64,000 bases of DNA from an uncultured Planctomycetota bacterium (GCA_963823665.1 CAWGMQ010000011.1:32001-96000); one strand, 5' to 3'. Positions 3,162 through 45,133 are shown, counted from the first letter of the stretch. A program made the numbers and translations. Notes: generated from the letters alone by a model not told the origin.

Positions 3162-3211
3162 ACCGTTATTACGGTCGACCGCCGTCAATGTGACGAGAGA
3201 TTCTCAGAAGA

Positions 3212-3592
3212 TTATACGAGTGCATCTGCCTGCGAGATGGGGATGGGCGCCGGCAAAGTGTAGCGTCGCTGGCGGCCCGCGGTGCGTAAATCGATGCCGG
3301 CGAGGATGGCAGCCATCTCGGCCGGCGAGACTTCGATGCGGTTCGCCGTGGGTTGAGGGAAGCGGAAGACGCCTCGCTCGAGCCGCTTGTACCAGAGCGC
3401 GTAGCCATCGCGGTCCCAGTAGAGGATCTTGAGGCGATCGCCCCGCCGATTGCGAAAGACGAAGAGATGGCCGCAGAGGGGATCCAAGCCGATGGTCGAA
3501 GAGGTGAGGGCAGCGAGGCCGTCGAATCCCTTCCGGAGATCCGCTGGCCCAACGGCCAAGAAAATGCGGACTGTGGGTGGGAAGTTGATCAC
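3212..3592 (-). CDS. tnpB: IS66 accessory protein TnpB
   Basis: DLRKGFDGL, LFVFRNRRGDRLKILYWDRDGYALWYKRLERGVF signature. Confidence 0.96.
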   Translation of the reverse strand: MINFPPTVRIFLAVGPADLRKGFDGLAALTSSTIGLDPLCGHLFVFRNRRGDRLKILYWDRDGYALWYKRLERGVFRFPQPTANRIEVSPAEMAAILAGIDLRTAGRQRRYTLPAPIPISQADALV

Positions 3593-6245: not shown

Positions 6246-6590
6246 TGGGTGCCATTCACATCCCACCAAGCCATGGCGCTCCTTGCCCGCCACTCGCCAT
6301 TTTTTGACGTCACTTCCACGCGCGTGTTCTAGGTTAGCAACAAGAGGATTGCGAGCGCGTGGCGAGCGGCAGAGTGCCGCACCATCCCGCCCGGCCGAAG
6401 CACTGCGAGAATCGGTGCTTGCGAGGCCATTTTCGTCGCGTTGGATCTGAAGACGTCAAGTTTGCGGGTCGGCCGTCCCCGCGGCTCCGATCGCGTTCGC
6501 GCTCTCACGAGCGGCGCTCGCCGCGGCGCCGCCGGAAGCCGGCCCGCGCCCTGGCTCACGCTTTTTTCACTCGCTCTGGAGTTGCCGCTC

Positions 6591-15500: not shown

Positions 15501-17189
15501 TCTGCATTGCCGCAGGGCTCCGGTCCGCTGCTAGGGACGACCACGGTCACGGCCGCGGCGGGCATCGCCACATTCACGAATCTCGCGGAAGACACCGCCG
15601 AGACCATATGGCTGCACTTCACGAGCACTCCCGCGCTCACCGTACTCAACTCGAGCAACATCGTGGTCAGCCCCGGAGCGGCCAGTCAGTTGGCGGTCAG
15701 CACACAGCCCTCACCGACGGCGACGGCGGGCGTGGCTTTTGCTACCCAGCCGGTGGTCTACGTCGAAGACCAGTTTGGCAATCTGGAGACAAACGACAAC
15801 GCGACCCAGGTGACGGCCACATCGTCGCCGCTTGGCTCTGGTCCCCTGCACGGAACCACCACCGTGACGGTCTCCGGCGGTATCGCCACGTTCACGGATC
15901 TATCGGACAACAAGGCCGAGACCATGTCTCTCCGGTTCATCAGTGTTCCTTCGCTCACCGCCGCAACGTCCAGCAGCATCGTGGTCAGCCCCGCGGCGGC
16001 GAGCCAGTTGGGCATTCATACGCAGCCTGGGGCCACGACGACGATCAATGTGCCGTTCAGCCCGCAACCGGTAGTTTACGTCGAGGACCAGTACGGCAAT
16101 CTCGAAACCGGCGACAATAACACGCAGGTGACGGCCTCTCTCAATACCGGCTCGGGTCCTCTGCTCGGTACCACGACGGTGACAGTCTCCGGTGGCGTAG
16201 CCACGTTCACAAACCTTGCCGATCCGACTGTTGAGACCATCACGCTACGGTTTACCAGCAATCCCGAGCTGGCGCAAGCCGTCTCGAACGCAATCGTCGT
16301 GAACCAACAAGTCCCCTATCAACTGGTGCTGCAGACGCAGCCCTCCTCGAGCGCCACGGCCGGTCAGGCATTTTCGCCACAGCCGGTGATCTACGTCGAA
16401 GACCAGGCGGGCGATCTCGTTGTCGGCGACAACACAACCCAGGTGACGGTCTCGTTGCGCACCGGCACCGGCCCGCTTCTGGGAACAACGACGGTCACTG
16501 CGTCGGGCGGCATCGCCACCTTCACCAACCTCACGGATGACAAGGCCGAGTCGATCATCCTGCTGTTCACCGCATCCGGTCTGGTCAAGGCGCAGTCGAA
16601 TCAGATCACGGTGAGCCCCGCCGCAGCCACTTCGCTGAGTATCGTCGCTCCGACGCTCGACACCGCGCGTAAGCCGTTCAGCGCGACCGTGACGGCGTAC
16701 GACCCCTATGGAAACGTCGCAACCGGATATCGCGGGACCGTCCATTTCAGCAGCACCGACCGCGGGGCGGTGCTGCCCGCCAACTACACCTTCACCACTG
16801 GCGACGCCGGTATTCACACATTTGGAAACGGTGTCACGATGAAGACGGTCGGTCAACAGACGATCACCGTTTTCGACATGTCCAACCCGTCGATCACCGG
16901 GAGCATCGTTGTGTACGTGAGCCCGGCCCCGGCGGCCGCCGTGCTCGCTGCTCTCGCGGACAACGGATCATCAGCAGGCCCGGCCGTTGCTGCCGTCTCA
17001 TCGCCAAGCGCCCATCCCATGGCCATGGTCGATAGCGCGCATGTGTCTCACGTAAGAACGGCCCGGGCAGACAGGCGCCGGATGCTTGCTCGAGCGGATC
17101 GAGCTCGCGATCGAGTGCTGGGCGGCTTCATGGGGAGCCTTCATGCTCTTCTGATGGCGGAGCGACTTCTCGATGGTCAGAGCGACTGA
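6591..17189 (+). CDS. Giant exported adhesin-like protein (~3,530 aa): LEPR-xLL-type leader, two beta-helix/choice-of-anchor-Q-like modules, 24 Ig-like repeats
   Basis: Uninterrupted ORF; RLEFLEERTLLS leader; GG-I-N repeats; GGPTQT...GSPAIDAG...DQRG...DxGAxE twice; 24 EDQYG-type units; ATG 6591 with GGAG upstream. Confidence 0.92.
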   Translation: MSSLNRPGSRIASSRRGQTPIARRRFACSRRNSSPRLEFLEERTLLSIDMVSNSNDSGPGSLRNAIATAGAGDMIEFNMTPGHVTSPITLTTGELTIAQNLKIVGPGASHLTISGNGASTVVAVSTGTNVAISGVTIADGVNGGTGGGVANKGDLKLLDDVLSDNSAQSGGAIYNSTGSLSVTGCTIESNHASNSGFGGGIFVTAGFVTIEDSTFQGNSAEGGGALVNGGGTVSLINSTLTSNSATDCGAIDNASNAELINCTVAGNTSTGIAGGIFNGVVASLTIGNTIIAGNSAGGAASDFDGAVTTDLGNNLIGDTSGSSGFTGPSDLLGVASGLAPLENNGGPTQTMGLTPGSPAIDAGNNALIPAGVGTDQRGFSRIVNGTVDVGAFEVQLYVVDNTNDQGPGSLRAAVTNADQAGGSSILFATTGVITLQSALPAISADVNMVGPGANTLSVSGNAAFQVFDVETGVTAGISGLTITDGSSGGNGGGIENDGTLTLTSCTVSDSSSGNDGGGIFNSGTLTVIASTVSGNTSSNDAGGIENSGTVAVVNSTVADNSANSGQGGGINNAGTLDLVNSTIADNSAFNGGGIQAGGAVTMANTIVGYNTLTGGTGADFDGSISTDSGYNLIADSSGSSGFTQPSDILDVDPLLSALGNYGGPTQTISLLPGSPAIDAGSNALAAFDSSPLTTDQRGDPRINDGIVDIGALETHLFTITILFGDNQSTAVKTDFNVLLTVVLTTFYGEPVEGGIVTFTAPGSGASATFPAGRTIITSPAGTASALAEANTITGSYQVAASSGGAGTKHFNLTNTPGAATQLAIQTQPSATASAGLPFGTQPVIDIEDQYGNLETGDNSTQVTAALATGSGTLEGTTTVTASAGVATFTNLAFSIPDTITLKFTSSPALTSVTSNAIVVTAPPTQLVIETEPSATATAGVSFATQPVVYVEDQYGDLETNDNTTQVTASLASGAGPLNGTVTVTVTGGIATFTNLSDNTAETISLRFTSVPVLTAATSSDIVISPAAASKLAVSTQPSPTATAGVAFSTQPVVDVEDQYGNLEASDNTTQVTATLHTGSGPLLGTTTVTVSGGIATFTDLSDDTAETISLQFTSVPALTSATSNNIDVSSAAATQLVVQTQPSATATAGVAFATQPVIWLEDQYGNLVKGNSAAQVTASALPAGSGPLQGFTTITASNGVVDFSGLAYDTAATIYLHFTSVPALTVANSSNIVVSPAAASQLAIITQPSPTATAGVAFSTQPVVYVEDQYGNLETGDNTTQVSASLNTGSGPLQGTTTETVSGGIATFTNLSDNKAETISLQFTSVPAVTAATSNNIVVSPAAATQLVLITQPSATATAGVAFATQPVVYIEDQYGNVETGDNTTEVTAALNTGSGPLQGTTIETASSGIATFTNLADDKAETISLQFTSVPALAVATSNNIVISPAAASQLAVITEPSPTATAGVAFGTQPVVYVEDQYGNLETGDNATQVTATSLPNGSGPLQGTTTETVSGGIATFTNLADDRAETITLQFSSVPSLAVATSSTIVISPAAATQLALVTEPSATATAGVPFSTQPVIWVEDQYGNIETGDNTTQVTAALNTGSGPLLGTTTETVSGGIATFTNLSDDTAETISLQFTSVPALTAATSNNIVVSPAAATQLVLITQPSSTATAGVAFATQPVVYIEDQYGNLETGDNTTQVTAASLPIGSGPLQGTTTVTASGGIVTFTDLADDTAETISLHFTSSPPLTVLNSNNIVVSPAAASLLAISTQPSPTAMAGVAFGTQPVIWVEDQYGNLETSDNTTEVTAALDLGSGPLQGTTTVMVSGGIATFTNLSDNQAETISLQFTSVPALTAATSNNIVVSPAAATQLVLITQPSATATAGATFATQPVVYIEDQYGNLETGDNSTVVTAALNTGSGPLQGTTLQTAANGIVTFTNLADDKAETISLQFTSVPALAAATSNNIVISPAAASQLAVITQPSLTATAGVAFGTQPVVYVEDPYGNLETGDNATQVTVTSLPLGSGPLLGTTTVTVSGGIATFTNLQDNTAETISLSFSSVPDLTPATSNDIVISPAAATQLALVTEPSATATAGVPFSTQPVIWVEDQYGNVETGDNTTQVTAALNTGSGPLLGTTVLTVSGGVATFTNLADDTAETISLTFTSVPALTAPTSSNIVVSPAAATQLVLITQPSAAATAGVAFATQPVVYIEDQYGNIETGDNATQVTASALPLGSGPLQGTTTVTASAGIVTFTNLTEDEAGTISLQFTSSPALAVTNSNNIVVSPAAASQLAINTQPSPAATAGVAFSTQPVVYIEDQYGNLETSDNTTEVTAALDLGSGPLQGTTTVMVSGGIATFTNLSDNQAETISLQFTSVPALTAATSNNIVVSPAAATQLVLSTQPSATATAGATFATQPVVYIEDQYGNVETGDNTTEVTAALNTGSGPLQGTTIETASSGIATFTNLADDKAETISLQFTSVPALAVATSNNIVISPAAASQLALITEPSSTATAGVAFGTQPVVYVEDQYGNLETGDNATQVTATALPNGSGPLQGTTTETVSGGIATFTNLADDRAETITLQFSSVPSLAVATSSTIVISPAAATQLALVTEPSATATAGVPFSTQPVIWVEDQYGNVETGDNTTQVTAALNTGSGPLLGTTVLTVSGGVATFTNLSDDTAETISLTFTSVPALTAPTSSNIVVSPAAATQLVLITQPSAAATAGVAFATQPVVYIEDQYGNIETGDNTTQVTAAALPLGSGPLQGTTTVTASGGIVTFTNLAENKAGTISLHFTSFPSLAVANSNNVVVSPAAASQLAVSTQPAPTATAGVAFSPQPVIWVEDQYGNLETGDNATQVTAALNTGTGPLQGTTTVTVSGGIATFTNLSDNKAETISLQFTSVPALIAATSNNIVVSPAAATQLILNTQPSPTATAGVPFSTQPVIDIEDQYGNIETGDNSTHVTASALPQGSGPLLGTTTVTAAAGIATFTNLAEDTAETIWLHFTSTPALTVLNSSNIVVSPGAASQLAVSTQPSPTATAGVAFATQPVVYVEDQFGNLETNDNATQVTATSSPLGSGPLHGTTTVTVSGGIATFTDLSDNKAETMSLRFISVPSLTAATSSSIVVSPAAASQLGIHTQPGATTTINVPFSPQPVVYVEDQYGNLETGDNNTQVTASLNTGSGPLLGTTTVTVSGGVATFTNLADPTVETITLRFTSNPELAQAVSNAIVVNQQVPYQLVLQTQPSSSATAGQAFSPQPVIYVEDQAGDLVVGDNTTQVTVSLRTGTGPLLGTTTVTASGGIATFTNLTDDKAESIILLFTASGLVKAQSNQITVSPAAATSLSIVAPTLDTARKPFSATVTAYDPYGNVATGYRGTVHFSSTDRGAVLPANYTFTTGDAGIHTFGNGVTMKTVGQQTITVFDMSNPSITGSIVVYVSPAPAAAVLAALADNGSSAGPAVAAVSSPSAHPMAMVDSAHVSHVRTARADRRRMLARADRARDRVLGGFMGSLHALLMAERLLDGQSD
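9040..16610 (+). repeat. Intragenic tandem array of 24 x 315/318-bp units
   Basis: QPS.TATAG..F.TQPV..VEDQYGN.ETGDN.TQV recurs every 105-106 codons; boundaries approximate. Confidence 0.95.
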
Positions 17190-17838: not shown

Positions 17839-18191
17839 ATATCCCAAGCCCCAAGGGGCGACATCGTACAACCTGGCGGCGTGACCCCCCGGTCGGGACC
17901 AAACGCCCGCCATATCCCAAGCCCCAACGGGGCGACATCGTACAGCCTGGTGGCGTGAGCCCCCGGTCGGGACCAAACGCCCGCCATATCCCAAGCCCCA
18001 ACGGGGCGACATCGTACAGCCTGGCGGCGTGAGCCCCAGGTCGGGACCAAACGCCCGCCATATCCCAAGCCCCAACGGGGCGACATCGTACAGCCTGGTG
18101 GCGTGAGCCCCAGGTCGGGACCAAACGCCCGCCATATCCCAAGCCCCAACGGGGCGACATTGTACAGCCTGGCGGCGTGAGCCCCAGGTCG
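17839..18191. repeat. Tandem array of ~4.8 x 74-bp double-hairpin REP-like units
   Basis: Units start at 17839, 17912, 17986, 18060, 18134; hairpins GCCCC-AAC-GGGGC and CCTGG..GGC-GTGA-GCC.CCAGG; linkers identical. Confidence 0.93.
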
Positions 18192-18463: not shown

Positions 18464-18678
18464 GGGAAAAGCGATCAGCACCGCCGGTCCATCCCGGCCC
18501 GGCCCGATCCGCGATATGTTGATTTTACTGGCATGAGCGGTCGACCGATGCTTATCCTCTGGAATGAAAAAGACTTGCGGGCCCTTGATCAGCCGCGCTG
18601 CGCGACGGAAGTATTGTCGCCCTTAGCTCCGCGAAGGGATTTTCCGACCATCCGCGCATGCGCGACGGAAAGAAGCTC

Positions 18679-19299
18679 ATGTCCGACACCGACACACGAG
18701 TTTCCCTGATCGTCGGCGTTTGCCAGCGTGATCCCGAGCGATGGCGCGAGTTCGACGCCATGTACCGGCCCATGTTGCTCGCCTTTCTGCGCAAGCAACA
18801 CCTAAACGAGTCGGACGCCAGCGACGTCGTCCAGGACATCTTCGTCAAGCTGCTCGACAAGATTCAGACTTACAAACGTGAAAAATACCGCTTCCGGAGC
18901 TGGCTCTTCGCCGTGGCACACAACACGTTGATCGACAAGGCCCGGCGGCGGGCCGCGCACAAGAAGGCCGTCGACGGATGGGTTGTCAACGTGCTCCGCT
19001 CAACCCCGTCGGATAGCCTGAAGATGGCCGAAGAGTGGGTGCGGCTCCATCGCTCGAAAATCCTCGCTCACGCGCTCGAAACCGTGCGCGGCCGTACGTC
19101 GCCGCGGGTGTGGGCGTGTTTCGAGCAACGGCTGTTGCGAAATCGCCCTGGTGCAGAGATCGCCAAGGAGCTGGGTTATGAGCCACCGACCGTTTACGCG
19201 AATGCCCACCGAGTGCTGAATCAGGTGCGTGCAATCTGCCAAGAATTCGACGAGGACCTGACCAATGATGGCGACTCTGGCCTGCCCCGACGAGACTGA
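18679..19299 (+). CDS. ECF sigma factor, Planctomycete kinase-associated type
   Basis: TRVSLI...WREFDAMYRP, DASDVVQDIF, FRSWLFAVAHN; region 4 GAEIAKELG...VYANAHRV; overlaps kinase gene. Confidence 0.93.
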   Translation: MSDTDTRVSLIVGVCQRDPERWREFDAMYRPMLLAFLRKQHLNESDASDVVQDIFVKLLDKIQTYKREKYRFRSWLFAVAHNTLIDKARRRAAHKKAVDGWVVNVLRSTPSDSLKMAEEWVRLHRSKILAHALETVRGRTSPRVWACFEQRLLRNRPGAEIAKELGYEPPTVYANAHRVLNQVRAICQEFDEDLTNDGDSGLPRRD

Positions 19300-21213
19300 G
19301 CTCCTGGTGCTGGCGATGGGCGAGCCCGTGGCTGCCGCACTCACAGCGCACGTGGATGGATGCGCAGCCTGCCGGGCGAACCTCAATCGGCTCCAGGCCG
19401 AGGTGGCAATGTTGCGGCAGAACCACGAACGCGGGACGACGCCCCCCTCGACCGAACGCGACCCCGCACTGGAGCACGACGCCGACGCGGCCGACGCCGG
19501 CGACGACCAAGGAGTGGATTCCGCTCGATCCGGCCGGGGCCCCCGGTCCGGAGGCGGTCGCCGCGGCCCGCGAGCTTGCCGAGGGGCTGAATGCCATGCC
19601 TGACGCGATCGGCCGGTACAAGGTCGTCGGCCAGCTCGGTTCCGGCGGCGAGGCGGATGTCTACCGCGTCGTCCACATCAAGCTGGGCAACGACCTGGTG
19701 CTGAAGCTGAGTCGCCGCCAGGTTGGTCCCGACAACCTTAGTCGGCCTGATCGACGAAGGCCGGCTGCTGATCGATTTGCAGCATCCCAACCTGGTGCGG
19801 ATCTACGACCTCGATTTCCACGATAATCGCCCGTTCCTGGTGATGGAGTACGTGCACGGCCGCAATCTGGAGGATTTTGCACGCGACGAGCCGGTAAGCC
19901 ATCGCCGTGCGGCCGCGCTGGCCGCGAAGCTGGCGGAAGTGATGGCCGTGGCGCATCAGCATGGGATCACCCACTGCGACATCAAGCCCAAGAACATCCT
20001 GATCGACAAGCTAGGCGAGCCGCGGCTGATCGACTTCGGCATGGCAAGGCTGCGGCACGCGTGGTCCGATCGCGTCGATTCGTCCGTGGGTGGGACGGTC
20101 GCGTTCATGGCTCCCGAGCAGGCGCGGCTGGAGCTCGATCGGATTGGACCCCGCAGCGACATCTTCGCGCTCGGCGGCGTGCTCTACTTCCTCCTCACCG
20201 GTTCAGCGCCGTTCCAGGGCCAAACCCACGAAGAAGTGTGGGCCCGCGCCCGCCGCTGCGATTTCGAGCCAGCAGCCCTGCGTGTCGCCAAGGTCCCGCG
20301 CCCCCTCGAGCGAATCTGCCTGAAGGCCATGACCGCCGAGCCGGCCGGCCGGTACGAAACGGCTGACGCCATGCAGCGTGCGCTCAAGCGCTATCTCGCA
20401 TGGCCGAAGGTCCTGGCCACGGCGGCTGGCGTTTGCGGCGTTGCGCTGCTCGGGCTCTTGCTCTACATCTTCGGCCCCCGGCCGGTGAAGGAAACGGCAA
20501 CGCCGCCGCTTGGCGGGTCTCAGGTCGCGCCCGCTGCAGATCGCCGGCCGATCCCCGCCCCGACGCAGCCGCTGAAAGGCCGGATCAATCTTCTGGTCGT
20601 CAAATCGAAGGATGGAACCCGGCGCAGGCTCCGGCTCCAGGATCCCCGGGCCGTGCCGTTGCGCGCCGCGGACGAGTTTCGGATCGAGGCCCGGCTCGAC
20701 CGTCCTGCCTACCTCTATCTCTTCTGGGTCGGCTCGGAGGGGAAGGTGGCTCCCCTGTATCCCTGGAAGGAGAACGACTGGTCGCAGCGGCCGGCCGAGG
20801 AACACAAGGTGTCGGGCGCCGAATTGCCGGGGATCTTCGACGACGTTCTGGAAATGCCGGTTTCGCCGCCGGGCCTGGAGACGCTCGTCCTTCTGGCTCG
20901 CGAAGACTCGCCGCTACCGCAGGAAGACGAGGTCAAGCTGGCCCAGGCTCTGTCGGGAACGCCCGTTCCCTTGCCCGACGATCTGACCAAGGCCATCTGG
21001 ATCGAAGATGGCGAAGAGGTGGTTTTCGAGCGGAGCTCTGGTACCAGGAGAAACCGCGCCGGCGAAGACGACTTGAGCCGCGGCATCCCCAGCCCCAAGA
21101 CCCGGAAGAGCGACGATCCGGTGCTGCGGATCCGGGCGCTCTTGAACGAGAAGGTGAAACCGCTGGGAAGTTACAGCCAGGCCGTGTTGTTTCCCAATCA
21201 GGGGGGTTCTTAG
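19265..21213 (+). CDS. Zinc-finger (HxxxCxxC) anti-sigma / Ser/Thr kinase / TM / DUF4384-like protein; frameshifts near 19490 and 19738
   Basis: CPDETEL...HVDGCAAC; LGSGGEADVY, LVLK, HCDIKPKN, DFG, APE; TM VLATAAGVCGVALLGLLLYIF; FRIEARLDRPAYLYLFWVGSEGKVAPLYP. Confidence 0.88.
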
Positions 21214-21273
21214 ACCGCTTCGGAAGGCGTCTTGCATCCTGTCTGCCGTCATCTCCAAGTGAGGATTATCCCC

Positions 21274-24200
21274 ATGCGCGATTCCGCTTCAGAACAGAAT
21301 TCACTCCGACCAGTTCTGCTGGCTGCGGCCGCGCTGACCTTATTCCTGGCAGGCTTAGTCTCATCGACGGCCAGCGCCGCGCAGCCCGCCCAGCGGCTGA
21401 CGCTCGAGCAGCGCAAGGATCTGAAGCAACGCGCGATCGAATTAAACAATGCCGGGTTCCAACTCTATCAGGAAGGTGAGATCGCTCGCGCCCTGGAGAA
21501 GATGAAGGAAGCGCTTCAGCTCTGCGAACGGCTTTACCCAAAAAGCGAATATCCAGGCGGTGACCCACACTTGGCCGCAAGCCCGAACAATCTGGGCTCG
21601 ATGCTCCAAGATCAGGGATCCTACGTCGAGGCGCGGGGCTTTTATGACCGGGGGCTGGCGATGTGTCAGGCCCTTTACCCCAAGGAGCGGTATCCGGACG
21701 GTCACCCCGACCTGGCCAACAGCCTGAACAACCTGGGCGACCTGCTCGAGGACCAGGGGGCCTTCGCGGAAGCGCGGGCCTTTCTCTAGCGGGCGCTAGC
21801 GATGCGTCAATCCCTCTACCCCAAGGAGCGTTATCCACACGGTCACCCCGACCTCGCCTCAAGCCTTCACAATCTAGGCCACGTGCTCGAAGACCAAGAG
21901 GCCCACGCCGAGGCGCGGGATTATTATGAGCGAGCGCTGTCGATGAACCAGTCCCTCTACCCCAAGGAGCGTTATCCACAGGGTCACCCCGATCTGGCCA
22001 CGAGCCTGCACAACCTGGGCCACCTGCTCGTCGACCAGGGTGCTTACGCCGAGGCGCGGGGATATTATGAGCGAGCGCTGTCGATGAACCAGTCCCTGTA
22101 CCCCAAGGAGCAGTATCCGGACGGTCACCCCGACCTGGCCACCAGTCTGTACGGCCTGGGCTACGTGCTCGAGGACCAAGGTGCCTACGCCGAAGCGCAG
22201 GCCTATCTCGAGCGAGCGCTGACGATGCGCCAAAGCCTCTACCCCCGAGAGCGTCATCCGCAGGGTCACCCGGACCTGGCCAACAGCCTGAACACCCTGG
22301 GCTCTGCGTTAATCCTCCAGGGGGCCTACCGCGAGGCGCGGGGCTATTACGAGCGGGCGCTGTCGATGAACCAGTCGCTCTACCCCAAGGAGCACTATCC
22401 GGACGGTCACCCTGACTTGGCCGCCAGCCTGAACAACCTGGGCCAACTGCTCAAGGACCAGGGTGCCTACGCCGGGGCGCGGGGGTATTACGAGCGGGCG
22501 CTGGCAATGACCCACGCCCTCTACGCGAAGCAGCAGTATCCGCAAGGACAATCCCACTTGGCCATCGGCCTGAATAACATGGGCGGGTTGCTCCAGGCCC
22601 AGGGTGCCTACGAACAGGCGAGGGACTATTATGAGCGGGCGCTGGCAATATACCAGGTGCGTTACCCGAAAGAGCGGTTCCCGCAGGGTCACGCCGACCT
22701 GGCTAGCAGCCTGAGCCGCATAGGCGCACTACTCGATCTACAGGGAGCCGACGGGAAGGCGCGGGGGTATTACGAACAGGCGCTGGCGATGAACGAAGCC
22801 CTGTACCCCAAGGAGCGTTATCCGCAGGGTCACCCCGACGTGGCCTCGAGCCTGAACAACCTGGGCCAGCTTCTCGAGGACCAGGGGGATTACGCCAAAG
22901 CGCGGGCCTATCTCGAACGGGCGTTGGCGATCCGTCAAAGCCTCTATCCCAAGAAGCGCTATCCGAGGGGACACCGGGAACTGGCCACCAGCCTGAGTAA
23001 CCTCGGCGGCTGGCTTTATGCCCAGGGCCGCTACGGCGAGGCCATGCCCCTCGTCCAGCAAGGAGCAGACATGCAGCAGGGCCTGGCCGACGTCCTGGTG
23101 GCCGCCACGTCAGAGGCCGAGGCGCTGAACTACCTTGCCCAGCTCCCATTGGACCGAGACGCTGTTATTTCCGTCTGCCTCCACGTGCCCGACAGCGACG
23201 AAGCAAGCTACGCCCGCGTCTGGGACGGCAAGGCGGCCGTCGCTCGGATGCTCCGGCGCCGCCGAGCTGAGCTGTCTCGCCAGGCTGCCGCCGACCCCGC
23301 CATCCGTCGGGTCGTCAACACCTGGCGTGACGTCCGCAGCCAACTCGCCCGGATGCTAATGGCCACCGCCGACGGCCGCGATCACCCTGAGCGGCTCACC
23401 AGGCTCCAGCAGCTCACCACAGAAAAGGACCGCATCGAACGGAGACTCGCCGAGGCGATTCCCGACTTCCTTCGTCGTCAGGCCCTGGAAGTTGGACCGC
23501 ATAACAAGCTTGTCGAGATGCTCGCTGATCACACGGTCGTTCTCGACCTCGTGAAGTACATACGCATCGAGCGGGCACCGCCGATCGACGGTGATAAAGG
23601 ATGGAGCCTGACACAGAGCTACATCGGCTACGTTCTCGCCAAGGGCCGGCCGGTGCGCGCGGTGGATCTGGGCCCGGCCACACCGATCGACGAGGCGGTT
23701 AAGACGTGGCGGGAAGCTATCAAAAAGCGCCAAATCAGTCCTTCCGGCAAGACGCTCCGCCGCTTGGTGTGGGAGCCCCTTGCGCGGCAGTTCGCGCCCG
23801 CCACGACGACCGTGGTTCTCGCTCTCGACGGCCTCTTGAACTCAGTCCCCTGGGCCGCGCTGCCGGGAGACAACCCCGACAGTGTCCTCCTGGAGCAGTA
23901 CGCCTTGGCCACCGTGCCCCATGCCCCGTTCCTACTCGACCGGCTCACCACACCGGTACCCCCGACTGACCACCCCGGCACCCTCCTTGCTGTCGGTGGC
24001 GTAGCTTACGACCAGCCTCCCAAGCCCGTCGGGGACGAGAAGATCAAGATCGAGGTGCTGGCGTCGCGCCAGCCCGAGACCGCCCGCGGCCGGGACGACG
24101 GCTGGAAGGAGCTGCCCGGCACGCTCGCCGAGCTAAACGCCGTCGCGCGGCTCGCTGGCACACGCACTGTGATCCGCCTTGAGGGCGCCGGCGCCGGCAC

Positions 24201-24888
24201 CGGTCAGCTCCTCCGCGATCTGCCCCGCGCCCGCTGGGCACACATCGCCACCCACGGCTTCTTCGCCAATCCCAGCATCCCCTCGGTCCTGCGGCCTGAT
24301 CCCCAGCACTTCTCTTTCATCGGCACCGAAAGCGTCGGCGCAGGCCTGCGCAATCCGCTGGTCCTCTCGGGTCTGGTCCTGGCCGGCGCCAATCTTCCCA
24401 GCACCGCAGTCGACCCCACAACGCATGACGACCTGGGCATTCTCACCGCCGAGGCGATCGCCGGCCTCCCCTTGCAAGACCTGGAGCTCGTCGTCCTCTC
24501 GGCCTGCGAAACCGGCCTGGGCTTGGTCGGCGGCGGCGAGGGCGTCTTCGGCCTCCAGCGTGCCTTCCACCTGGCCGGCGCCCACAACGTCGTCGCCAGT
24601 CTCTGGCAGGTCGACGACCAAGCAACGGCCGCTCTGATGGCAATCTTCTACGACCAGCTCTGGCGCGAGCACAAGCCGCCGATCGAGGCGCTGCGGACTG
24701 CCCAGTTGAGGCTTTACCACCATCCTGAGTGTATCGGCCAGCTCGCCAAGCTCCGCGGTACGCCCGACTTCGACAAATACGTCCAGCGCCCGGAGCCCGT
24801 CACTACCAATGGCCAGCCAGCCGGGACGCAACAACACGCCCCGATCGAGAAATGGGCCGCGTTTGTGCTCTCGGGGTGGGGGAAATGA
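21274..24888 (+). CDS. Exported TPR-CHAT caspase-like protease 1; in-frame TAG at 21787-21789
   Basis: Signal peptide ending TASA; 11 x 47-aa TPR-like repeats; HIATHGFF (His), VVLSACETGLG (Cys), VVASLWQVDD, WAAFVLSG; both ORF pieces in the same frame. Confidence 0.92.
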
Positions 24889-24896
24889 GGAGGCAA

Positions 24897-27800
24897 ATGA
24901 TGAATCGACGCGACCGCCACTGGAAAGTCTGCAAGCTGGTGCTTACGACGGTACTGGCGGCCCCCGGGGTCGTATTGTTGGTAGCCGCGGTCGCACCATT
25001 CTTCATCGGCTTGATTTCACCAGCAGCCCGCCTCGCAGATTCTTCGGAGCGGCTGACGCCGGAGAAACGCGAGGAGTTGAAGCATGAGGCGATCGAATTG
25101 CTCGAGTCCGCATCCCAACTCCGTCAGCGCGGGGAGATCGTTTTCGCCCTGGAGAAGACGAAGCAGGCCGTGCAGATCTGCGAACGGCTATATCCCAAGA
25201 GCGAGTATCCGGCTGGTCACGCCGCCCGGGCCGGCTGCCTGAACGAGATGGGCAGCCTACTCCAAGACCAGGGGGCCTACGCCGAGGCGCGGGAGTATTT
25301 CGAGCGGGCACTCGCGATGAACCAGGCCCTTTACCCGAAAGAGATGTGTCCGCATGGCGACCCCGACCTTGCCAGAAGCCTGAACAACCTGGGCGCCGCG
25401 CTTTGGGCCGACGGCGCCTACGTCGAGGCACGGGGTTATTACGAACGGGCGTTGGCAATGAAGGAGGCCCTCTACCCCAAGGAGCATTTTCCGCAGGGCC
25501 ACCCTGGTCTGGCCACCAGCTTGAACAACCTGGGCGCGCTGCTCGGGCACCAGGGAGCGTACAGCGAATCACGCGGGTATGTCGAGCGGGCGCTGGCGAT
25601 GTGCCAGGCACTCTACCCCAAAGAGCATTTTCCGCAAGGACACCCCGAACTGGCCAAAAGTCTGACCCTCCTGGGCGTCGTGCTCCAGCACCAGGGGGCC
25701 TACGTCGAAGCGCGCGGCTATTTCGAGCGGGCGCTGGCGATGTACCAGGCCGTCTATCCCAAAGAGAGGTATCCCCGCGGAAACCCCGACGTGGCTCAAT
25801 GCCTGGACAACCTGGGCGCAGTGCTCCAGGCGCAAGGGTCCTACGGCGGGGCGCGGGGCTATTGCGAGCGGGCGTTTTCGATGTACCAGGCCCTCTACCC
25901 CGAGCAGCGGTATCCGCACGGTCACCCCCGCCTGGCCGAAAGCCTGACCTCTCTGGGCTTCCTGGTTGACGCCCAGGGAGCGCACGCTGAGGCGCAGGGG
26001 TATTTCGAGCGGTCGCTGGCGATGTACTCGACCCTCTACCCCGAGGAGCAGTATCCGCACGGACACCCCGAGCTCGCCCGAAGCCTGCGCAACATGGCCA
26101 CCGTGCTCAAGACCCAAGGGACCCATGCCGAAGCACAGGAGTATAGCGAGCGGGCGCTAGCGATCTACCAGGCCATCTACCCCAAGGAGCGGTATCCGCA
26201 CGGACATCCGGACTTGGCCGCGAGCCTGATCAACATGGGCGTCCTGCTCCAGGTCCAAGGTGCCGACGGCGAAGCGAGAGGCTATTTCCAGCGGGCCCTG
26301 GCGATGTATCAGACCCTCTACCCCAAGGAGCAATACCCGCGCGGGCATCCCGCCCTCTCCCCAAGCCTGAACAAACTGGGCGAATTGCTTTATGCCGAGG
26401 GGAACTATCGCGAAGCGCGAGGGTACTTCGAGCGGGTGCTAGCGATGAATCAGGGCCTCTACCCCAAGGAGCTTTATCCGCAGGGGCACGACGACCTGGC
26501 CACCAGTCTCAGCAACGTTGGATCGGTACTGTACAGCCAAGGGGTCTACGGCGAGGCCAGGCCTTTTCTACAGCAATGCGTGGACATGCAGCAGCGTCTG
26601 GCCGAGATCCTGCTGGCCGCAACCTCCGAGGCCGAGGCGCTGAATCACATGGCCCAGCTCGCATTAACCCGAGACGGTTTCATCTCGGTCTGCCTCCATG
26701 TGCCCGGGAGTGACGAGGCATTGTATGACCGGCTCTGGCGCGGCAAGGCAGCCGTCGCTCGCATGCTGCAGCGCCGCCAGGCCGAGCTATTTCGCCAGGC
26801 TGCTGTCGCCCCTGGCGCCGCTCGCGACATCGAGACCTGGCGCGAAATCCGCGATGAGCTCGCCCGGTTGCTGTTGGCGACGGCGGACGGCCGCGACCAC
26901 CCTGAGCGGCTCGCACGGCTTCAGCATCTCACGGCAGATAAAGAGCGAATCGAGCGCCAATTGGCTGCGACGATTCGCGAGTTCGCCCGTCATCAGGACA
27001 TGGAGCGTAGCCGCTATACCAGGCTCGTGGAAGCGCTCCCAGAGCACATGGTCATCCTCGATATCACAAGCTACACACGCTCCGAACAGGACCCGCAGAT
27101 CAAAGGGGAGAAGGGGTGGCGCGCGACACCCAGCTACATCGGCTTCGTGCTGGCCAAGCGCCGGCCGGTGCGCGCGGTGGATCTGGGTCCAGCCGCGCCG
27201 ATCGATGAGGCGGTTGAAACCTGGCGCGAGGCCATCAAGGGGCGGCGGGCGAGTCCTGCTGCCGCGGTGCTCCGCCGCCTGGTCTGGGAACCCTTTGCGC
27301 GGCGGTTCGCGCCCGAGACGACGACCGTGGTTCTCGCTCTCGATGGCTGGTTGACCGCGGTCCCTTGGGCCGCGCTGCCGGGCGACAAGCCGGGCACCGT
27401 GCTCCTGGAGCAGTACACTTTAACCACCGTGCCCCACGCCCCGTTCCTCCTCGACCGGCTCACGGCGCCGGCGCGCCCGGCCAACGCCCGGGGTATTCTT
27501 CTGGCTGTTGGTGGCGTCGCCTACGACCAGGCCCCCAAGCCCGTCGAGGACGAGAAGACCAAACCCGAAGTATTAGCCCTGCGCCAGCCTGAGACCGGCC
27601 GCGGCCGCGGCGACGGCTGGAAGCAGCTACCCGGCACGCTCAACGAGCTGAACGCCGTGACGCGGCTCGCCGACCCTCGCACTGTGTTTCGCCTCGAGGG
27701 AGCCGAGGCCGGCACCGCGCAGCTCGTCCGCGAGCTGCCCCGCGCCCGCTGGGCACACATCGCCACGCACGGCTTTTTCGCAGATCCGAACATCCCCTCG

Positions 27801-28403
27801 GTCCTGCGGCCGGATCCCAAGCTCTTCGGCTTCGTCGGCAACGAAAATGTCGGCGTCGGCATGCGCAATCCGCTCGTCCTTTCGGGCCTGGTCCTGGCCG
27901 GCGGCAATCGGCCGAGCGCCGATGCGGACAACTCACCGCATGATGACATGGGCATCCTTACCGCCGAGGCGATCGCCGGACTTCCCTTGCAAGACCTCGA
28001 GCTAGTCGTCCTTTCCGCCTGCGAGACCGGCCTGGGATTAGTCGGCGGCGGCGAGGGGGTCTTCGGCCTCCAGCGCGCCTTCCACCTGGCCGGTGCCCAC
28101 AACGTCGTCGCCAGTCTCTGGCAGGTCGACGACCAAGCAACAGCCGCTCTGATGGCGATCTTCTACGACCAGCTCTGGCGGGAGCACAAGCCGCCGATCG
28201 AGGCGCTGCGGACCGCCCAACTCGCGATTTACCGCAATCCCGGTCTGGCGGGCCAGCTCGCCAAGCTCCGTGGCACGCCCGACTTCGACAAGCTCGTCCA
28301 CCGCCCCGAGCCGGTCCCCGGGGCCGGCCACGACCAAGAGCCGAAAAACCGCGCCCCAGTCAATCATTGGGCTGCCTTCGTTCTCTCGGGATGGGGCAAG
28401 TGA
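24897..28403 (+). CDS. Exported or membrane-anchored TPR-CHAT caspase-like protease 2
   Basis: GAGGAGG SD; hydrophobic N-terminus; 10 x 47-aa repeats; intact HIATHG/LSACETG dyad; paralog of the previous gene. Confidence 0.94.
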   Translation: MMNRRDRHWKVCKLVLTTVLAAPGVVLLVAAVAPFFIGLISPAARLADSSERLTPEKREELKHEAIELLESASQLRQRGEIVFALEKTKQAVQICERLYPKSEYPAGHAARAGCLNEMGSLLQDQGAYAEAREYFERALAMNQALYPKEMCPHGDPDLARSLNNLGAALWADGAYVEARGYYERALAMKEALYPKEHFPQGHPGLATSLNNLGALLGHQGAYSESRGYVERALAMCQALYPKEHFPQGHPELAKSLTLLGVVLQHQGAYVEARGYFERALAMYQAVYPKERYPRGNPDVAQCLDNLGAVLQAQGSYGGARGYCERAFSMYQALYPEQRYPHGHPRLAESLTSLGFLVDAQGAHAEAQGYFERSLAMYSTLYPEEQYPHGHPELARSLRNMATVLKTQGTHAEAQEYSERALAIYQAIYPKERYPHGHPDLAASLINMGVLLQVQGADGEARGYFQRALAMYQTLYPKEQYPRGHPALSPSLNKLGELLYAEGNYREARGYFERVLAMNQGLYPKELYPQGHDDLATSLSNVGSVLYSQGVYGEARPFLQQCVDMQQRLAEILLAATSEAEALNHMAQLALTRDGFISVCLHVPGSDEALYDRLWRGKAAVARMLQRRQAELFRQAAVAPGAARDIETWREIRDELARLLLATADGRDHPERLARLQHLTADKERIERQLAATIREFARHQDMERSRYTRLVEALPEHMVILDITSYTRSEQDPQIKGEKGWRATPSYIGFVLAKRRPVRAVDLGPAAPIDEAVETWREAIKGRRASPAAAVLRRLVWEPFARRFAPETTTVVLALDGWLTAVPWAALPGDKPGTVLLEQYTLTTVPHAPFLLDRLTAPARPANARGILLAVGGVAYDQAPKPVEDEKTKPEVLALRQPETGRGRGDGWKQLPGTLNELNAVTRLADPRTVFRLEGAEAGTAQLVRELPRARWAHIATHGFFADPNIPSVLRPDPKLFGFVGNENVGVGMRNPLVLSGLVLAGGNRPSADADNSPHDDMGILTAEAIAGLPLQDLELVVLSACETGLGLVGGGEGVFGLQRAFHLAGAHNVVASLWQVDDQATAALMAIFYDQLWREHKPPIEALRTAQLAIYRNPGLAGQLAKLRGTPDFDKLVHRPEPVPGAGHDQEPKNRAPVNHWAAFVLSGWGK

Positions 28404-28411
28404 GGAATCGC

Positions 28412-29179
28412 ATGACAAATCGACGTGAACTCCGTGAACTCCGTGGACTGCGTTGGAAGTTGGCATTTATCCCGGTCCTGGTGACCGCCGCGTGCGGGGC
28501 TGGCGAAACGCAGGCACCGGCACCAAAGCAAGCCGACCCCGAGCCGCTGAAAGCCGTTCTCCATCTCCGAATCGGCGACCCGGCCGACGTGGGCCGCCGC
28601 AATCTTCGGCTCGACCAGCCCAACGTGCTCCCTGTCAAGGCGGGCGACTGTTTCCACATCGAAGCGCGGCTAAACCGCCGCGCCTACGTGTATCTTTTCT
28701 GGGTCGGCTCCGACGCCAAGGTCTCCCCGATGTACCCATGGATGCCCGGCCACTGGGACAAAAGGCCCGAGCGGGAGGAGAAGAGAGATCGCCTCGACCT
28801 TCCGGACCAGGCTGACAAGGCGTGGACGATCCCGACCGGAAGCCCGGGAAACGAGACGCTGCTCCTGCTCATCCGCGAAAAAAGCCCATTGCCGCGGCGG
28901 GACGAGGAGAAGCTCGCGAGGCTCTTCGCCGACGCCCAGGTGTCCAGCTCGGTCCTGATCAAAGAGGCCGTCTGGCTTGAGAACGGCCGCGAGATCACGC
29001 TCGACAAGCAAGACCGCGCGTCGCCCAGCCCGAAGACCCGCAAGAGCGATGACCCCGTGCTGCGCATCCGCAAGCTATTGAGCGACAAGGTCCAGCCGCT
29101 GGGCGACTTCTGGCAGGCCGTGGTCTTTCCGAACGAGGGGGGCAAGGAAAAGGCGAGTTCCCATCAACAAGAGAAGTAA
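28412..29179 (+). CDS. Stand-alone DUF4384-like protein, probable lipoprotein
   Basis: LAFIPVLVTAAC lipobox-like; paralogous to the kinase C-terminal domain (IEARL.R.AY.YLFWVGS; PSPKTRKSDDPVLRIR). Confidence 0.85.
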   Translation: MTNRRELRELRGLRWKLAFIPVLVTAACGAGETQAPAPKQADPEPLKAVLHLRIGDPADVGRRNLRLDQPNVLPVKAGDCFHIEARLNRRAYVYLFWVGSDAKVSPMYPWMPGHWDKRPEREEKRDRLDLPDQADKAWTIPTGSPGNETLLLLIREKSPLPRRDEEKLARLFADAQVSSSVLIKEAVWLENGREITLDKQDRASPSPKTRKSDDPVLRIRKLLSDKVQPLGDFWQAVVFPNEGGKEKASSHQQEK

Positions 29180-29248
29180 ACGACGCATCGAATCGCGATT
29201 CTGACGGAGAGCACCGCGGACACCCGCACGGATCTTTTCCCATTCGCT

Positions 29249-29419
29249 GTTCGGCGCAGGTCTGCAACCCCGCCCAATGTCGCCCTTCGCTCCGCGAAGG
29301 GATCTCCCGGTTGGCCGCAGGTCTGCAACCCCGTCCAATGTCGCCCTTCGCTCCGCGAAGGGACCTCCTCGTTCGGCGCGGGTCTCCTGACCCCGCCGGG
29401 GCCGCGACCGGAGGTCTCC
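29249..29419. repeat. Composite REP array with 61-bp period
   Basis: Units at 29249, 29310, 29371; the first two contain GTCGCCCTTCGCTCCGCGAAGGGA, a near copy of which lies at 18616-18639. Confidence 0.85.
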
Positions 29420-29444
29420 CGGCGTTTCATACGCCAATCCCAAA

Positions 29445-29479
29445 TCGATGAAAGATTTCCAGCGGGCGTGCGTAACAGA
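29445..29479 (+). promoter_or_regulatory. Putative ECF promoter TGAAAG-N16-CGTAAC
   Basis: 29/35 identical to 18429-18463; ~50 bp before ATG 29530. Confidence 0.6.
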
Positions 29480-29529
29480 AGGTGATAGATGAATTGGGAA
29501 GGTGCATCCTGTACAAGAAAGGGCACGCC

Positions 29530-30132
29530 ATGGCCGTCTTCATCGCCACCACTGTGCAATGGGTCATTCTCCCACTCATCATGTGCGCGATCTTCGCGTT
29601 CGCCTGGATCATCGCCAGCTCGGCAAAGACCGCCGAATTGCGCGTTTCGTCTTGGGCGGGTTTCTGGGCCGGGCTGCTCACCTTCGTTGTCTACGTCGTG
29701 AGCCAGCTCGGCCAGATCCAGGAACCAAAGCTCCAGTTCGAGAAATTGCCGGGCGTGCAATTTCTCGAGCTGGGCTGGGGACTGACCACCGGCTTTGTGT
29801 TTCTCTCGGTTGTCCGGCACGCCGTGCCCACACGCCTGGTCGGGCTGCTCACGCTCATGCTCGCCGGCTCGAGCACATCGGCACTCTTCACTTATGTCTT
29901 TATCAACCCTTCGAGGGTCTCGGTCTTGTACTGGACGCTCGGCACCGCCCTGGGGATTCTCTTGCACATCGTTCTCTTCCCCACGTCCATCGCTCACATT
30001 TTCCCCCTGGCCGATAAAAAGGATCGCTTTCTCATCGACGCACCGCGGAGGCCGGCGGCATCGACCTCTGGCGCTGCGGGAACAGGCGAGTCATCGCTCA
30101 ATGCCCAGCCGCTTCAACCCGCAGCCGCTTGA
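29530..30132 (+). CDS. Hypothetical integral membrane protein (~5-6 TM)
   Basis: Alternating hydrophobic helices; polar C-terminal tail. Confidence 0.8.
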   Translation: MAVFIATTVQWVILPLIMCAIFAFAWIIASSAKTAELRVSSWAGFWAGLLTFVVYVVSQLGQIQEPKLQFEKLPGVQFLELGWGLTTGFVFLSVVRHAVPTRLVGLLTLMLAGSSTSALFTYVFINPSRVSVLYWTLGTALGILLHIVLFPTSIAHIFPLADKKDRFLIDAPRRPAASTSGAAGTGESSLNAQPLQPAAA

Positions 30133-30238
30133 GCGCTGGGTCTCTCAGATCATGTTGGCAAGATTCTGACTCTCCGTAAGTCCGTGTACTGACTACGAGT
30201 GACTTTCAAGGTCCGATCGACGAGAGGAAACACCGATC

Positions 30239-31729
30239 ATGAAAAGCATCGTCCAATGGCTCACGGCAACATTGACCCTTGCCGTGCCGTTACTGGGCGC
30301 CCAGGCCCACGCCGGCGGCTCGGCCGATTCGGTCGTCAAGGTGTTCACCCAGATGCGGCTGCCCAACCCGGTGCGGCCGTGGATCAAGCAGAATCCCGTC
30401 GAGGTGATGGGCAGCGGCGTGGTCATCGAGCGGAAAACGGATCCTCACCAACGCCCATCTGGTCCTCTACGCGGATGAGGTCTTCGTTCAAGGCGGCCGA
30501 GGGGGCGACCGGGTCGAGGCCAAAGTGGCCGCGATCGGGCCGGGTATCGACCTGGCCGTGCTGACACTCGACGACGAGACGTTCTTCGCCAAGCGGCCCC
30601 CGATCGTCCGCGCGTCGAAGCTTCCCGAGATCACGTCGCGGGTCGCGGTTCAGGGCTTTCCGGTCGGCGGCACCAGCCTCTCGACCACCCAGGGAACGGT
30701 GGCGCGCATCGAGTACGACTTCTACGAGACCGGCGCGGCGGGCTTGCGAATCCAGGTCGACGCCGCGATCAACCCGGCAACAGCGGTGGGCCAGCCGTGA
30801 TCGACGGCAAGATGATCGGTGTGATCTCGGGCCATGCCGAGAACATCGGTTACATCATCCCCAACCAGGAGATCGACGACTTTCTGACCGATGTCGCCGA
30901 CGGTCGTTACGAGGGCAAGCCTTACATCTTCGACCAGTTGCAGACGATGGAAAACGAGGCGCTGCGCGGCAAGCTCGGCGCTGGCGAAGGACGTGCACGG
31001 GCTGATGGTCCGCGAGCCGAAGCACCGCGATCCGTCTTACCCGCTCAAGGAGTTCGACATCCTGACGCGAATCGGCACGCACGAGATCGACAACGAGGGG
31101 ATGATCCAGGCGGAGGACAATCTTCCGACTTTCGTTCATGTCGCAGGTCCCGAAGCTCGTCCGCAATGGGACGGTGCCGGTGACCGTGCTGCGTGCCGGC
31201 AAGACGATCGAGGTGGCCCTGCCGGTCAGTCGCGAGCCTGACCAGTTGCTCCGCGGCTATGACGGCGCGCTACCCGTCTTACTTCGTTTGCGGCCCGCTG
31301 GTCTTCTCGCCGGTGGTCTCCAACGCGGTCCGTTACTACTTCCAGTACAACCCTGGTCTCGGCGGTCGCAACAGCCCGCTGTCGACCCGGCGCTCCGACC
31401 GGGCGCACTTCCCGGGCGAAGAGCTCGTCGTGGTCACGGCACCGCTGCTTCGGACCCGGATGACCAAGGGCTACGCAGACCCATTCGGACAGGTCCTGAG
31501 CGAGGTAAACGGGACCAAGGTCAAGAACCTCGCGCACCTGGTCGAGCTGATCCGGTCAAGCAAGGACGAATACCTCACCTTCCGGTTCGCCGAGGACTAC
31601 AGCGAGACGCTGGTCTTCCGCCGCAAGGCGATGCTCGACGCGACCGAGTCGCTCATGAGCGAGAACGGCATTCCCCGCCGGGGAAGCGACGATGTGCTGG
31701 CGGTCTGGAACGGCAAGGTCGGGAAATGA
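30239..31729 (+). pseudogene. Exported HtrA/Deg-like trypsin serine protease with PDZ domains, ~5 frameshifts (pseudogene or sequencing errors)
   Basis: Signal peptide; GSGVVI, ILTNAH, DLAVL, GFPVGG, QVDAAINP(G)NSGG, YFVCGPLVF, VNGTKVKNLAHL spread over different frames. Confidence 0.85.
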
Positions 31730-31832
31730 ATTGAACGAGAGCGGAATTCGCTTTCTCGCGCGGGTGGTGAAGCCAGCCTGGCCTGGCCCCACCCGCAAGC
31801 TTCACGACCAGAGCGCGAGACCGAGTATTGTT

Positions 31833-44558: not shown

Positions 44559-44962
44559 CGCGGGCCTCGCTTTCCACGCTTCGCCTCGAGGTCGTCGATC
44601 ATCTGCCGAAATCTCGCGATTTCCCAAGGAGAGAACTGGTGCCGCTCGGCAAACGCGAGCACCAGTGGAAGTGCCTCGCCATCGCACAGTTCTCCCGCCA
44701 GGTCGTTCATCCGTGACCGGATCACGTCCTCACGCGAGACCAGGGCGCGAAAGACAAACGCAAAACGGCTCCTGTCGCTCTCGACGTATCCCTTCCGCTC
44801 GAGACGCTGCAACAGCGTGATCACGGTAGACCTCGTCCATTCCTGGCCTTGCTCCTCAAGCCGCCCGAGAACTTCTCGAACCGCGAGCGGACCGTGCTCC
44901 CAGAGCACCTTGAGCACTTGCAGCTCGGCATCACTCGTCGTGGGTCGACCTTCATCCGTCAT
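44555..44962 (-). CDS. BlaI/MecI/CopY-family repressor
   Basis: SDAELQVLKVLW, STVITLLQRLERKGYV; directly upstream of the M56 gene. Confidence 0.94.
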   Translation of the reverse strand: MTDEGRPTTSDAELQVLKVLWEHGPLAVREVLGRLEEQGQEWTRSTVITLLQRLERKGYVESDRSRFAFVFRALVSREDVIRSRMNDLAGELCDGEALPLVLAFAERHQFSPWEIARFRQMIDDLEAKRGKRGPR

Positions 44963-44986
44963 CGTTTGCGGCCCCCATCCGATCCG

Positions 44987-45037: not shown

Positions 45038-45133
45038 GAGCGACTGAAGAAAAGCGGTGGGCCGATCCTGGACACGGTGGTGAGAACGTGGGAAGTTTGA
45101 CGTTCGGATGCACCGAGGGGCCGGGAGACCGAA

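Follow-up and report, generated by a model that had tools for sequence, protein, structure and literature searches.

Genes for a sigma factor, a receptor kinase and two apparently exported caspase-like proteases stand head to tail in the genome of a soil planctomycete, which raises the question of whether the proteases act on the receptor and, through it, on the sigma factor. This locus was studied in a 64,000-nucleotide stretch of DNA (G000:C11:32001-96000), here called the window, from a source genome (G000) of 16.5 Mb in 12 contigs that is 92% complete; all plain coordinates are positions in the window, numbers beginning with L denote fetched kinase or sigma regions, and G029 is a genome of the same genus. 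To our knowledge, substrates are lacking for most bacterial CHAT proteases, and DUF4384 is a domain without an assigned function. We found that the sigma factor, the receptor kinase with its DUF4384-like ectodomain and the exported TPR-CHAT proteases belong to a real, conserved gene set, and that a short tag following an Arg residue co-varies between ectodomain and protease. We propose, with a probability of roughly 55%, that CHAT nicks the ectodomain at this loop Arg and thereby acts on the kinase and anti-sigma domain, in the manner of a split version of the Myxococcus xanthus protein DdvA.

A conserved set of sigma factor, receptor kinase and protease genes

Five co-oriented genes occupy positions 18679-29179, with junctions of about -32, 60, 8 and 8 bp. 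An earlier interpretation made from the DNA alone (the sequence-only reading) had placed sigma factor, kinase, two CHAT proteins and a stand-alone DUF4384-like protein in this order, and the open reading frames (ORFs) and domains were located as it described. It overlooked a sixth co-oriented gene at 29530-30132 and took the genes of this copy to be intact, when the kinase gene lies in three frames and the first CHAT gene (CHAT1) contains an in-frame stop, making three breaks, two in the kinase gene and one in CHAT1. In hidden Markov model searches, the sigma factor matched Sigma70_r2 (E 7.8e-15) and TIGR02937 (64.8 bits over residues 22-184, cut-off 42.9); having sigma2 and sigma4 only, it belongs to the extracytoplasmic function (ECF, group 4) sigma factors. 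Both CHAT domains were likewise found (E 5.9e-59 and 6.3e-60; PF12770 about 200 bits in both), and the two DUF4384-like domains matched PF14326 with E 6e-5 and 4e-5 (23.5 and 23.9 bits), below the Pfam cut-off of 27 bits. Most relatives carry a precomputed PF14326 match, and the best Atlas matches (0.93-0.94) are DUF4384 clusters.

The stand-alone DUF protein found matches in 22 of the 121 genomes of the host family, and the DUF alignment in at least 45 of 401 class genomes and at least 7 of 401 phylum genomes, the class and phylum counts being lower bounds with 7 candidates scored per genome. Regions were fetched around a subset of all matches (34 around family matches, 40 around class or phylum matches), and kinase loci were selected for the linkage count by their DUF domain alone. 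Among the 62 kinase genes with a long DUF domain, including that of the window, 54 were evaluable, and 45 of these 54 had a co-oriented CHAT gene no more than 9.5 kb downstream; for loci with 5 kb downstream only, a CHAT gene followed the kinase in 42 of 51. Several families of the class are represented among the loci, and the synteny search that the sequence-only reading had named as a check turned out in its favor. A sigma gene of the same clade stands upstream of the kinase in 28 of 35 host-family loci, and outside the family, where ORFs were selected crudely, an ECF gene was found just upstream in 7 of 27. The kinase catalytic motif and a transmembrane (TM) segment before the DUF domain were each present in 81 of 84 long distant representatives, and an HxxxCxxC zinc finger in 16. 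Given these frequencies of downstream CHAT, finger and ECF genes, the pair of kinase-DUF and CHAT constitutes the core, and the sigma arm is variable; judging from the gene arrangements, the zinc anti-sigma arm is the form that the module takes in the host's family. A search of a collection of genome contigs returned one locus only, and no relatives of the module were found in viral contigs or plasmids with the queries used.

Matching Arg tags in the ectodomain and the protease

The predicted structure of the ectodomain (predicted local distance difference test, pLDDT, 89) is a sandwich of Ig type in which a single loop, residues 181-200, is poorly ordered; this loop, the least confident of the model, is closed by Arg200, and the residues just after Arg200 are modeled with high confidence. 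Only three columns are invariant among 137 sequences, and Arg200 is one of them; of 146 distant representatives 142 have it, its neighbors being variable and the next residue mostly G, A or S. A Foldseek search with the ectodomain gave no match at E<=0.001, a profile search with the DUF domain gave no meaningful match, and VIA gave generic Ig-like matches (best Z 6.4, root-mean-square deviation 3.5, 125 aligned), Csx30 not being among those listed.

As the sequence-only reading had stated, both TPR-CHAT proteins keep the His-Cys dyad of clan CD proteases, the His in HIATHG and the Cys in LSACET, and the C-terminal half of the second (CHAT2) is 80% identical in DNA to that of CHAT1. Both catalytic motifs are kept in 114 of 120 CHAT relatives. 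Signal peptides and export were judged by hydrophobicity only: among relatives not starting inside the TPR region, 54 of 89 have a hydrophobic stretch in their first 70 residues, compared with 2 of 120 at residues 100-170, which is consistent with the export that the earlier reading had predicted. A tail Arg is present in 106 of 126 CHAT sequences, in the loop between the last helix and the last strand, which by caspase topology presumably lies near the active site. Solved CHAT structures were not matched by sequence, and a CHAT profile search had TPR proteins among the 60 matches listed.

For the comparison of tags, 40 kinases were each paired with the nearest co-oriented CHAT protein having a readable tail (at L073, CHAT lies upstream of the kinase). 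Loci in which either motif is frameshifted (L003/L016, L018, L028, L033) were left out, as were L020, which is almost identical to L025/L030, the short-DUF loci, and loci that lack a CHAT tail or are truncated by a contig end. All 40 kinases have Arg in the ectodomain reference column. When each pair was allowed its best Arg, the six residues after it gave 8.3 versus 1.9, with a worst p of 0.002 in 20 resamplings of 12 clusters at 45% identity, and the six residues before it gave no signal in the same test (median p 0.56). When the CHAT Arg was fixed by a partner-blind rule in 22 loci hand-picked from the 40 pairs, positions 2'-6' gave +93 versus -89 +/- 23, with p<1e-5, a value that is optimistic because some of the 22 loci are kin; the near side gave p=0.54. 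Since ectodomain and protease are not homologous, shared ancestry alone gives no matching tags. Together with the DUF4384 group among the C-terminal domains of Csx30 (see below), this co-variation argues for the direct CHAT-DUF4384 link suggested by the sequence-only reading.

The tags match only after the Arg, this residue is also found in kinases that have no CHAT gene nearby, and the residues just after it are modeled confidently, as if packed on the domain. These features would also fit a mechanism in which a pocket of the DUF4384-like domain (or of the TPR array) holds the receptor's own Arg loop and is vacated when the matching loop of the protease displaces it, the receptor staying uncut and the catalytic targets lying elsewhere. 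We consider this unlikely, as the catalytic His and Cys are conserved (114 of 120), the residues after the Arg are small, as at cleavage sites, and the precedent of Csx30 is cleavage in such a loop. A prediction of the complex of CHAT1 (584 aa, 126 rows) and the ectodomain (243 aa, 137 rows) scored 0.00 twice, which weighs neither for nor against an interaction.

The stand-alone DUF protein and the kinase ectodomain share 47% identity and are paralogues, as had been proposed. A free copy occurs in 12 loci of 11 genomes (one partial match was discounted), and the free copies group apart from their cognate kinase domains (bootstrap not fully settled), so that they represent an old, retained duplicate. 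A basic and hydrophobic signal peptide is general across 120 relatives, and R-[AST]-x-P is kept in 111 of 112 pattern-matched sequences among 119 examined. The proposal that the protein is a lipoprotein was rejected, the lipobox Cys being present in just 5 of 120 relatives including the window copy; the idea that its short loop makes it uncleavable is weak, since kinases of other clades have equally short loops. An exported, tagged copy of this kind would suit a different division of labor, in which the CHATs are outputs of the operon directed at outside targets, the DUF4384-like domains serve as bait or inhibitors, and the receptor reports an uncontrolled protease, the cell's own or a foreign one from kin. 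The tags do differ between lineages, tandem CHATs and inserted trypsin-like genes occur, and in Haliangium the inhibitor PCi is also a substrate and is encoded beside sigma, kinase and caspase genes (bioRxiv 2023.06.23.546230). The free copy is confined to one clade, however, and no outside target or secretion system was linked to the locus among the window ORFs scanned, and we regard this arrangement as very doubtful.

Proposed mechanism

Returning to cleavage of the receptor, we suggest that the periplasm is the destination of the TPR-CHATs and of the free DUF protein as well as the place of the kinase ectodomain, and that a protein signal is probably sensed by the TPR arrays, whose number varies. 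CHAT would be an Arg-directed protease whose substrate tag consists of the few residues after the Arg; bearing such a tag in its own C-terminal loop, it may cleave or inhibit itself, and it would cut the matching tag in the ectodomain loop. The nicked ectodomain would change the state of the receptor, and in this clade the output would be release of the ECF sigma factor from the N-terminal CHCC zinc domain, probably with the aid of the kinase or of further membrane proteolysis, by analogy with DdvA. The free DUF protein would most likely set the threshold by competing as a decoy or inhibitor.

Several observations weigh against this mechanism. Coarser clustering weakens the tag signal (7 clusters, median p 0.006 and worst 0.097; 4 clusters, median 0.04 and worst 0.42), the tags of L037, L054, L064 and L067 fail to match, and a match restricted to the side after the Arg is unusual for protease specificity. 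The Arg is retained in kinases without a nearby CHAT gene, with 9 of 54 loci having none downstream, so the loop Arg may be structural or bind something else. The zinc finger and, outside the host family, the upstream ECF gene are found in a minority of relatives, as counted above, and the window copy itself is broken in three places. Finally, G029 keeps an intact kinase and lacks the equivalent of window positions 21285-31831 with both CHATs, only the first CHAT1 codons being left; no close CHAT was found elsewhere in this genome (84% complete), where the best long matches reach 35-37%. As this locus is syntenic, the protease block can be lost.

More tentatively, and with a lower chance of being right, the tags may form a transferable address code, in which an exported caspase-like protease activates itself as well as its receptor through cleavage after Arg. 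The N-terminal tag exposed in this way, common to protease and receptor and varying from lineage to lineage, would then be the signal by which parallel modules are insulated or kin told apart from non-kin, with a secreted decoy adjusting the threshold. The module offers a candidate substrate, residue and specificity code for a large orphan protease family; if the mechanism is true, caspase-like signaling would be extended to the periplasm and to receptor kinases, and orthogonal protease-tag pairs could serve as tools.

Table 1. Features of the locus by window position. The slash in a motif follows the Arg.
Feature	Position	Strand	Remarks
ECF sigma factor, 206 aa	18679..19299	+	Sigma70_r2, TIGR02937; region 2.2 is DASD at 18814
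Zinc-finger/Ser-Thr kinase/TM/DUF4384-like receptor gene	19268..21213	+	about 650 aa in orthologues; three frames as assembled
CHCC zinc-binding anti-sigma-type domain	19283..19372	+	C6/H28/C32/C35; DdvA-like spacing
Two frameshifts in the kinase gene	19501..19744	+	+1 at about 19501, net +1 at 19738-19744, relative to three intact orthologues
Single TM helix	20413..20469	+	basic residues on kinase side
DUF4384-like Ig-type ectodomain, about 215 aa	20563..21210	+	exceeds the Pfam model, which has 81 positions
Near-invariant loop Arg of the ectodomain	21079..21081	+	SR/GIPS; candidate cleavage or docking site
TPR-CHAT 1	21274..24888	+	predicted signal peptide, 11 TPR repeats of 47 aa, CHAT; His 24253, Cys 24505, tail-loop Arg 24754 (LR/GTPD); in-frame TAG 21787-21789
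TPR-CHAT 2, intact	24897..28403	+	predicted signal peptide, 10 TPR repeats; His 27768, Cys 28020, tail-loop Arg 28269
Stand-alone, probably exported DUF4384-like protein, 255 aa	28412..29179	+	Arg at 29015 (DR/ASPS); lipobox-like Cys 28493; candidate decoy or inhibitor
Multi-pass membrane protein, about 200 aa	29530..30132	+	five long helices predicted; accessory, found after the sigma-kinase clade whether or not CHAT is present
Tag pairs, ectodomain/protease			RGIQIG/RGIQIG (L049); RDLNL/RDLEL (L025); RGPRL/RGPRL (L073); RGLxF/RGLxF (L046); RGIP/RGTP (window)

Zinc finger, kinase and sigma factor

The zinc anti-sigma finger that had been assigned to the kinase was located at its N-terminus, where the ligand pattern C/H-x(n)-HxxxCxxC of zinc anti-sigma (ZAS) domains is present with the spacing of DdvA. 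The four ligands are invariant in 19 of 19 aligned finger copies; zf-HC2 matches 11 of the 19 at E<=0.05, the window copy falling below the cut-off, and in a comparison of the finger profile with the PDB, RslA, RsiW and DdvA rank first, weakly (E 0.006-0.05). The kinase motifs GxGxxG, K, HCDIKPKN, DFG and APE are all present in the window gene, and relatives encode finger, kinase, TM and DUF domain in a single frame (L007, L008, L012, L014, L015, L020, L021, L024, L027, L031). With a single-TM kinase bearing an N-terminal zinc finger at +1 from the sigma gene, the locus resembles ECF62. In the sigma clade D-A-x-D/E is kept, with S, N, Q, H, F, G or D at position 3 among 22 aligned sigma factors. 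Phosphorylation of the sigma factor at the DAED motif, as in ECF43, where an uncharged motif with a conserved Thr takes the place of DAED, was considered and rejected: the acidic motif is kept and the Ser of the window copy is not conserved, which makes EcfP-style activation at that motif unlikely.

In the upstream alignment of the sigma genes, TTATCCT and CACGTCAA were present in part of the clade; elements resembling them lie about 70 and 25 bp before the sigma start codon in L011, L021, L023, L024, L026, L031 and L033-L036, and are possible promoter parts. CACGTCAA is missing upstream of the window sigma gene in this alignment, from which neither a clear ECF -35/-10 pair nor a regulon emerged. 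Two repeats flank the genes. A 74-bp unit repeated 4.8 times (96% alike) at 17839-18191, three units of which score as Rfam Acido-Lenti-1 on the minus strand, looks like a repetitive extragenic palindrome (REP)-type repeat rather than a CRISPR array. A 61-bp repeat (2.4 copies) at 29244-29397 follows the free DUF gene, and a kin stretch lies in the sigma leader at about 18617-18645 and twice in G029.

The sixth gene and the question of defense

The gene at 29530-30132 is found once in each of 9 of 121 family genomes, six times at DUF/CHAT modules, twice after sigma-kinase pairs without DUF or CHAT, and once unlinked; its membrane protein may be an output of the module. Its model (pLDDT 62) gave generic helical bundles as structural matches; no Pfam family matched the window protein, SpoIIM appearing weakly in 12 of 88 relatives, and no Atlas entry for it was found. 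At L084:13711-18999, sigma, kinase and a homologue of this membrane protein are followed by a VgrG-like gene.

The sequence-only reading had listed defense as a possible role, and nothing in the window scans points to phage defense. No cas families were present among the window ORFs scanned, nor the combination of Cas7-11, Csx30/31 and a CRISPR array that characterizes the type III-E CASP system; PADLOC gave generic kinase and TPR matches only, and the tandem arrays at 17000-64000 are the 74-bp and 61-bp identical-unit repeats and the TPR repeats.

Breaks in the window copy

The frameshifts of the kinase gene and the TAG of CHAT1 (Table 1) lie within 2.3 kb. The TAG falls in the second TPR repeat, where the other repeats mostly have Glu, and as assembled it severs the catalytic part from the signal peptide. 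Breaks so close together, an HtrA-like neighboring gene that is also in pieces, the loss of the CHAT block from G029 and a nearby 3,582-aa ORF that is unbroken could mean that the window copy, whatever the family does, is a decaying pseudogene cluster. We think this rather unlikely. In 9.4 kb of ordinary genes on the flanks, G000 and the same-genus G029 differ by about ten single-base indels, which favors long-read error; many relatives on long contigs are similarly frameshifted and those on short contigs are intact, the in-frame part differs from G029 by 102 synonymous and 83 non-synonymous codons, and all catalytic motifs are retained. The breaks are therefore more likely long-read errors than decay. 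In a search of public runs, no RNA run was listed among the holders (shares at most 0.18), and public contigs aligned on 18600-24900 showed no indel at the break positions, which the listed pieces do not span, and so have no bearing on error versus decay.

Neighboring genes and related loci

Just upstream of the locus, 6441-17189 (+) encodes a 3,582-aa repeat-rich, adhesin-like surface protein, which is also upstream of the syntenic G029 locus. Downstream, an HtrA/DegP-like gene with PDZ_3 lies in several frames at 30200-31730 (+) and is lost along with the CHAT block in G029. The window further contains an IS66 element (1600-3592, -), an ECF sigma gene with a long C-terminal extension (37968-40376, +), a BlaR1/BlaI-like pair (42405-45826, -) and a kinase-TPR gene (51489-54389, +).

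At L004:5296-9489, L008:5386-8538 and L017:2997-4733, a Trypsin_2 gene (in L004 also WD40) stands between the kinase-DUF and TPR(-CHAT) genes, and a protease cascade is possible there. Elsewhere in the source genome, L042 (G000:C7:826000-845999) has a kinase followed by three tandem TPR-CHAT genes, apparently exported, whose tail loops contain ERG; no DUF domain was detected at this locus. A second module, L039 (G000:C4, about 2125700-2144000), has a sigma factor and a kinase with a short classic DUF4384 and no TM detected; this kinase is divergent from the CHAT cluster, and the CHAT tail loops there are short, without an Arg tag.

Comparison with known systems

The module is apparently undescribed as a unit and assembled from known parts. 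A literature search did not find it, subscription papers and some supplements (including those on bioRxiv), which could bear on novelty, lying beyond the reach of that search; it is absent from the available passages of PMC8195603, PMC11032199 and the Haliangium preprint. CHAT genes near ECF54, kinase-DUF4384 fusions and DUF4384 on orthocaspases have already been catalogued, as have ECF62 zinc-finger kinases in planctomycetes (PMC7826278). The ECF59, ECF62 and ECF217 groups share with the present locus an ECF gene with a single-TM kinase at +1, and in ECF62 also the N-terminal zinc finger, but their ectodomains are described as WD40 or TPR, and the part of the supplement covered has no CHAT or DUF4384 (PMC7826278). 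The ECF43 pairs EcfP-PknT and EcfK-PknS likewise place a receptor kinase beside an ECF sigma factor, and the periplasmic domain of PknS may restrain its kinase; these sigma factors lack the acidic DAED and are activated by phosphorylation, whereas the clade studied here keeps D-A-x-D (PMC8999054, PMC13147305).

The Haliangium type III-B cluster comprising SAVED-CHAT, PCaspase, PCc-sigma, PCi and PCk brings together CHAT, sigma factor, kinase and protease inhibitor as here, but as a cytoplasmic cascade triggered by cyclic nucleotides, with no receptor ectodomain (bioRxiv 2023.06.23.546230). In the type III-E system (Csx29, Csx30 and CASP-sigma), with which the sequence-only reading had drawn its analogy, a TPR-CHAT protease is also directed against an anti-sigma factor; the C-terminal domain of Csx30 is what CHAT binds, a loop of this domain is where Csx30 is cut, and one group of these domains is DUF4384 (PMC10028731, bioRxiv 2022.08.17.504292). 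That system is cytoplasmic, triggered by RNA through Cas7-11, cuts after Met or Leu, and has no kinase or TM. If our proposal is true, modules of the present kind are a possible non-CRISPR source of DUF4384-type Csx30 domains.

The CHAT-DUF4384 link proposed with that analogy found support; the closest characterized system, rather than type III-E, is DdvA-DdvS of M. xanthus, which the earlier reading did not name. DdvA contains zinc anti-sigma domain, TM and periplasmic TPR-CHAT in one chain, and its self-cleavage has been proposed (PMC11506125). Common to both are an ECF sigma factor, a cytoplasmic CHCC domain with C6/H28/C32/C35 spacing, one TM and a periplasmic TPR-CHAT proposed to cut the receptor (PMC11506125). 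For cleavage after Arg, separase provides a precedent (PMC11506125). DdvA is a single polypeptide that lacks a kinase and whose active site is incomplete, and its cleavage is only proposed (PMC11506125). The intact orthologues of the window locus encode instead a zinc finger-kinase-TM-DUF protein and separate TPR-CHAT proteins; the protease is thus a separate, apparently exported one, kinase and DUF4384-like ectodomain are both parts of the receptor, and there is no adjacent defense island. If cleavage of this receptor is true, the module would give a simpler handle on the self-cleavage idea for DdvA.

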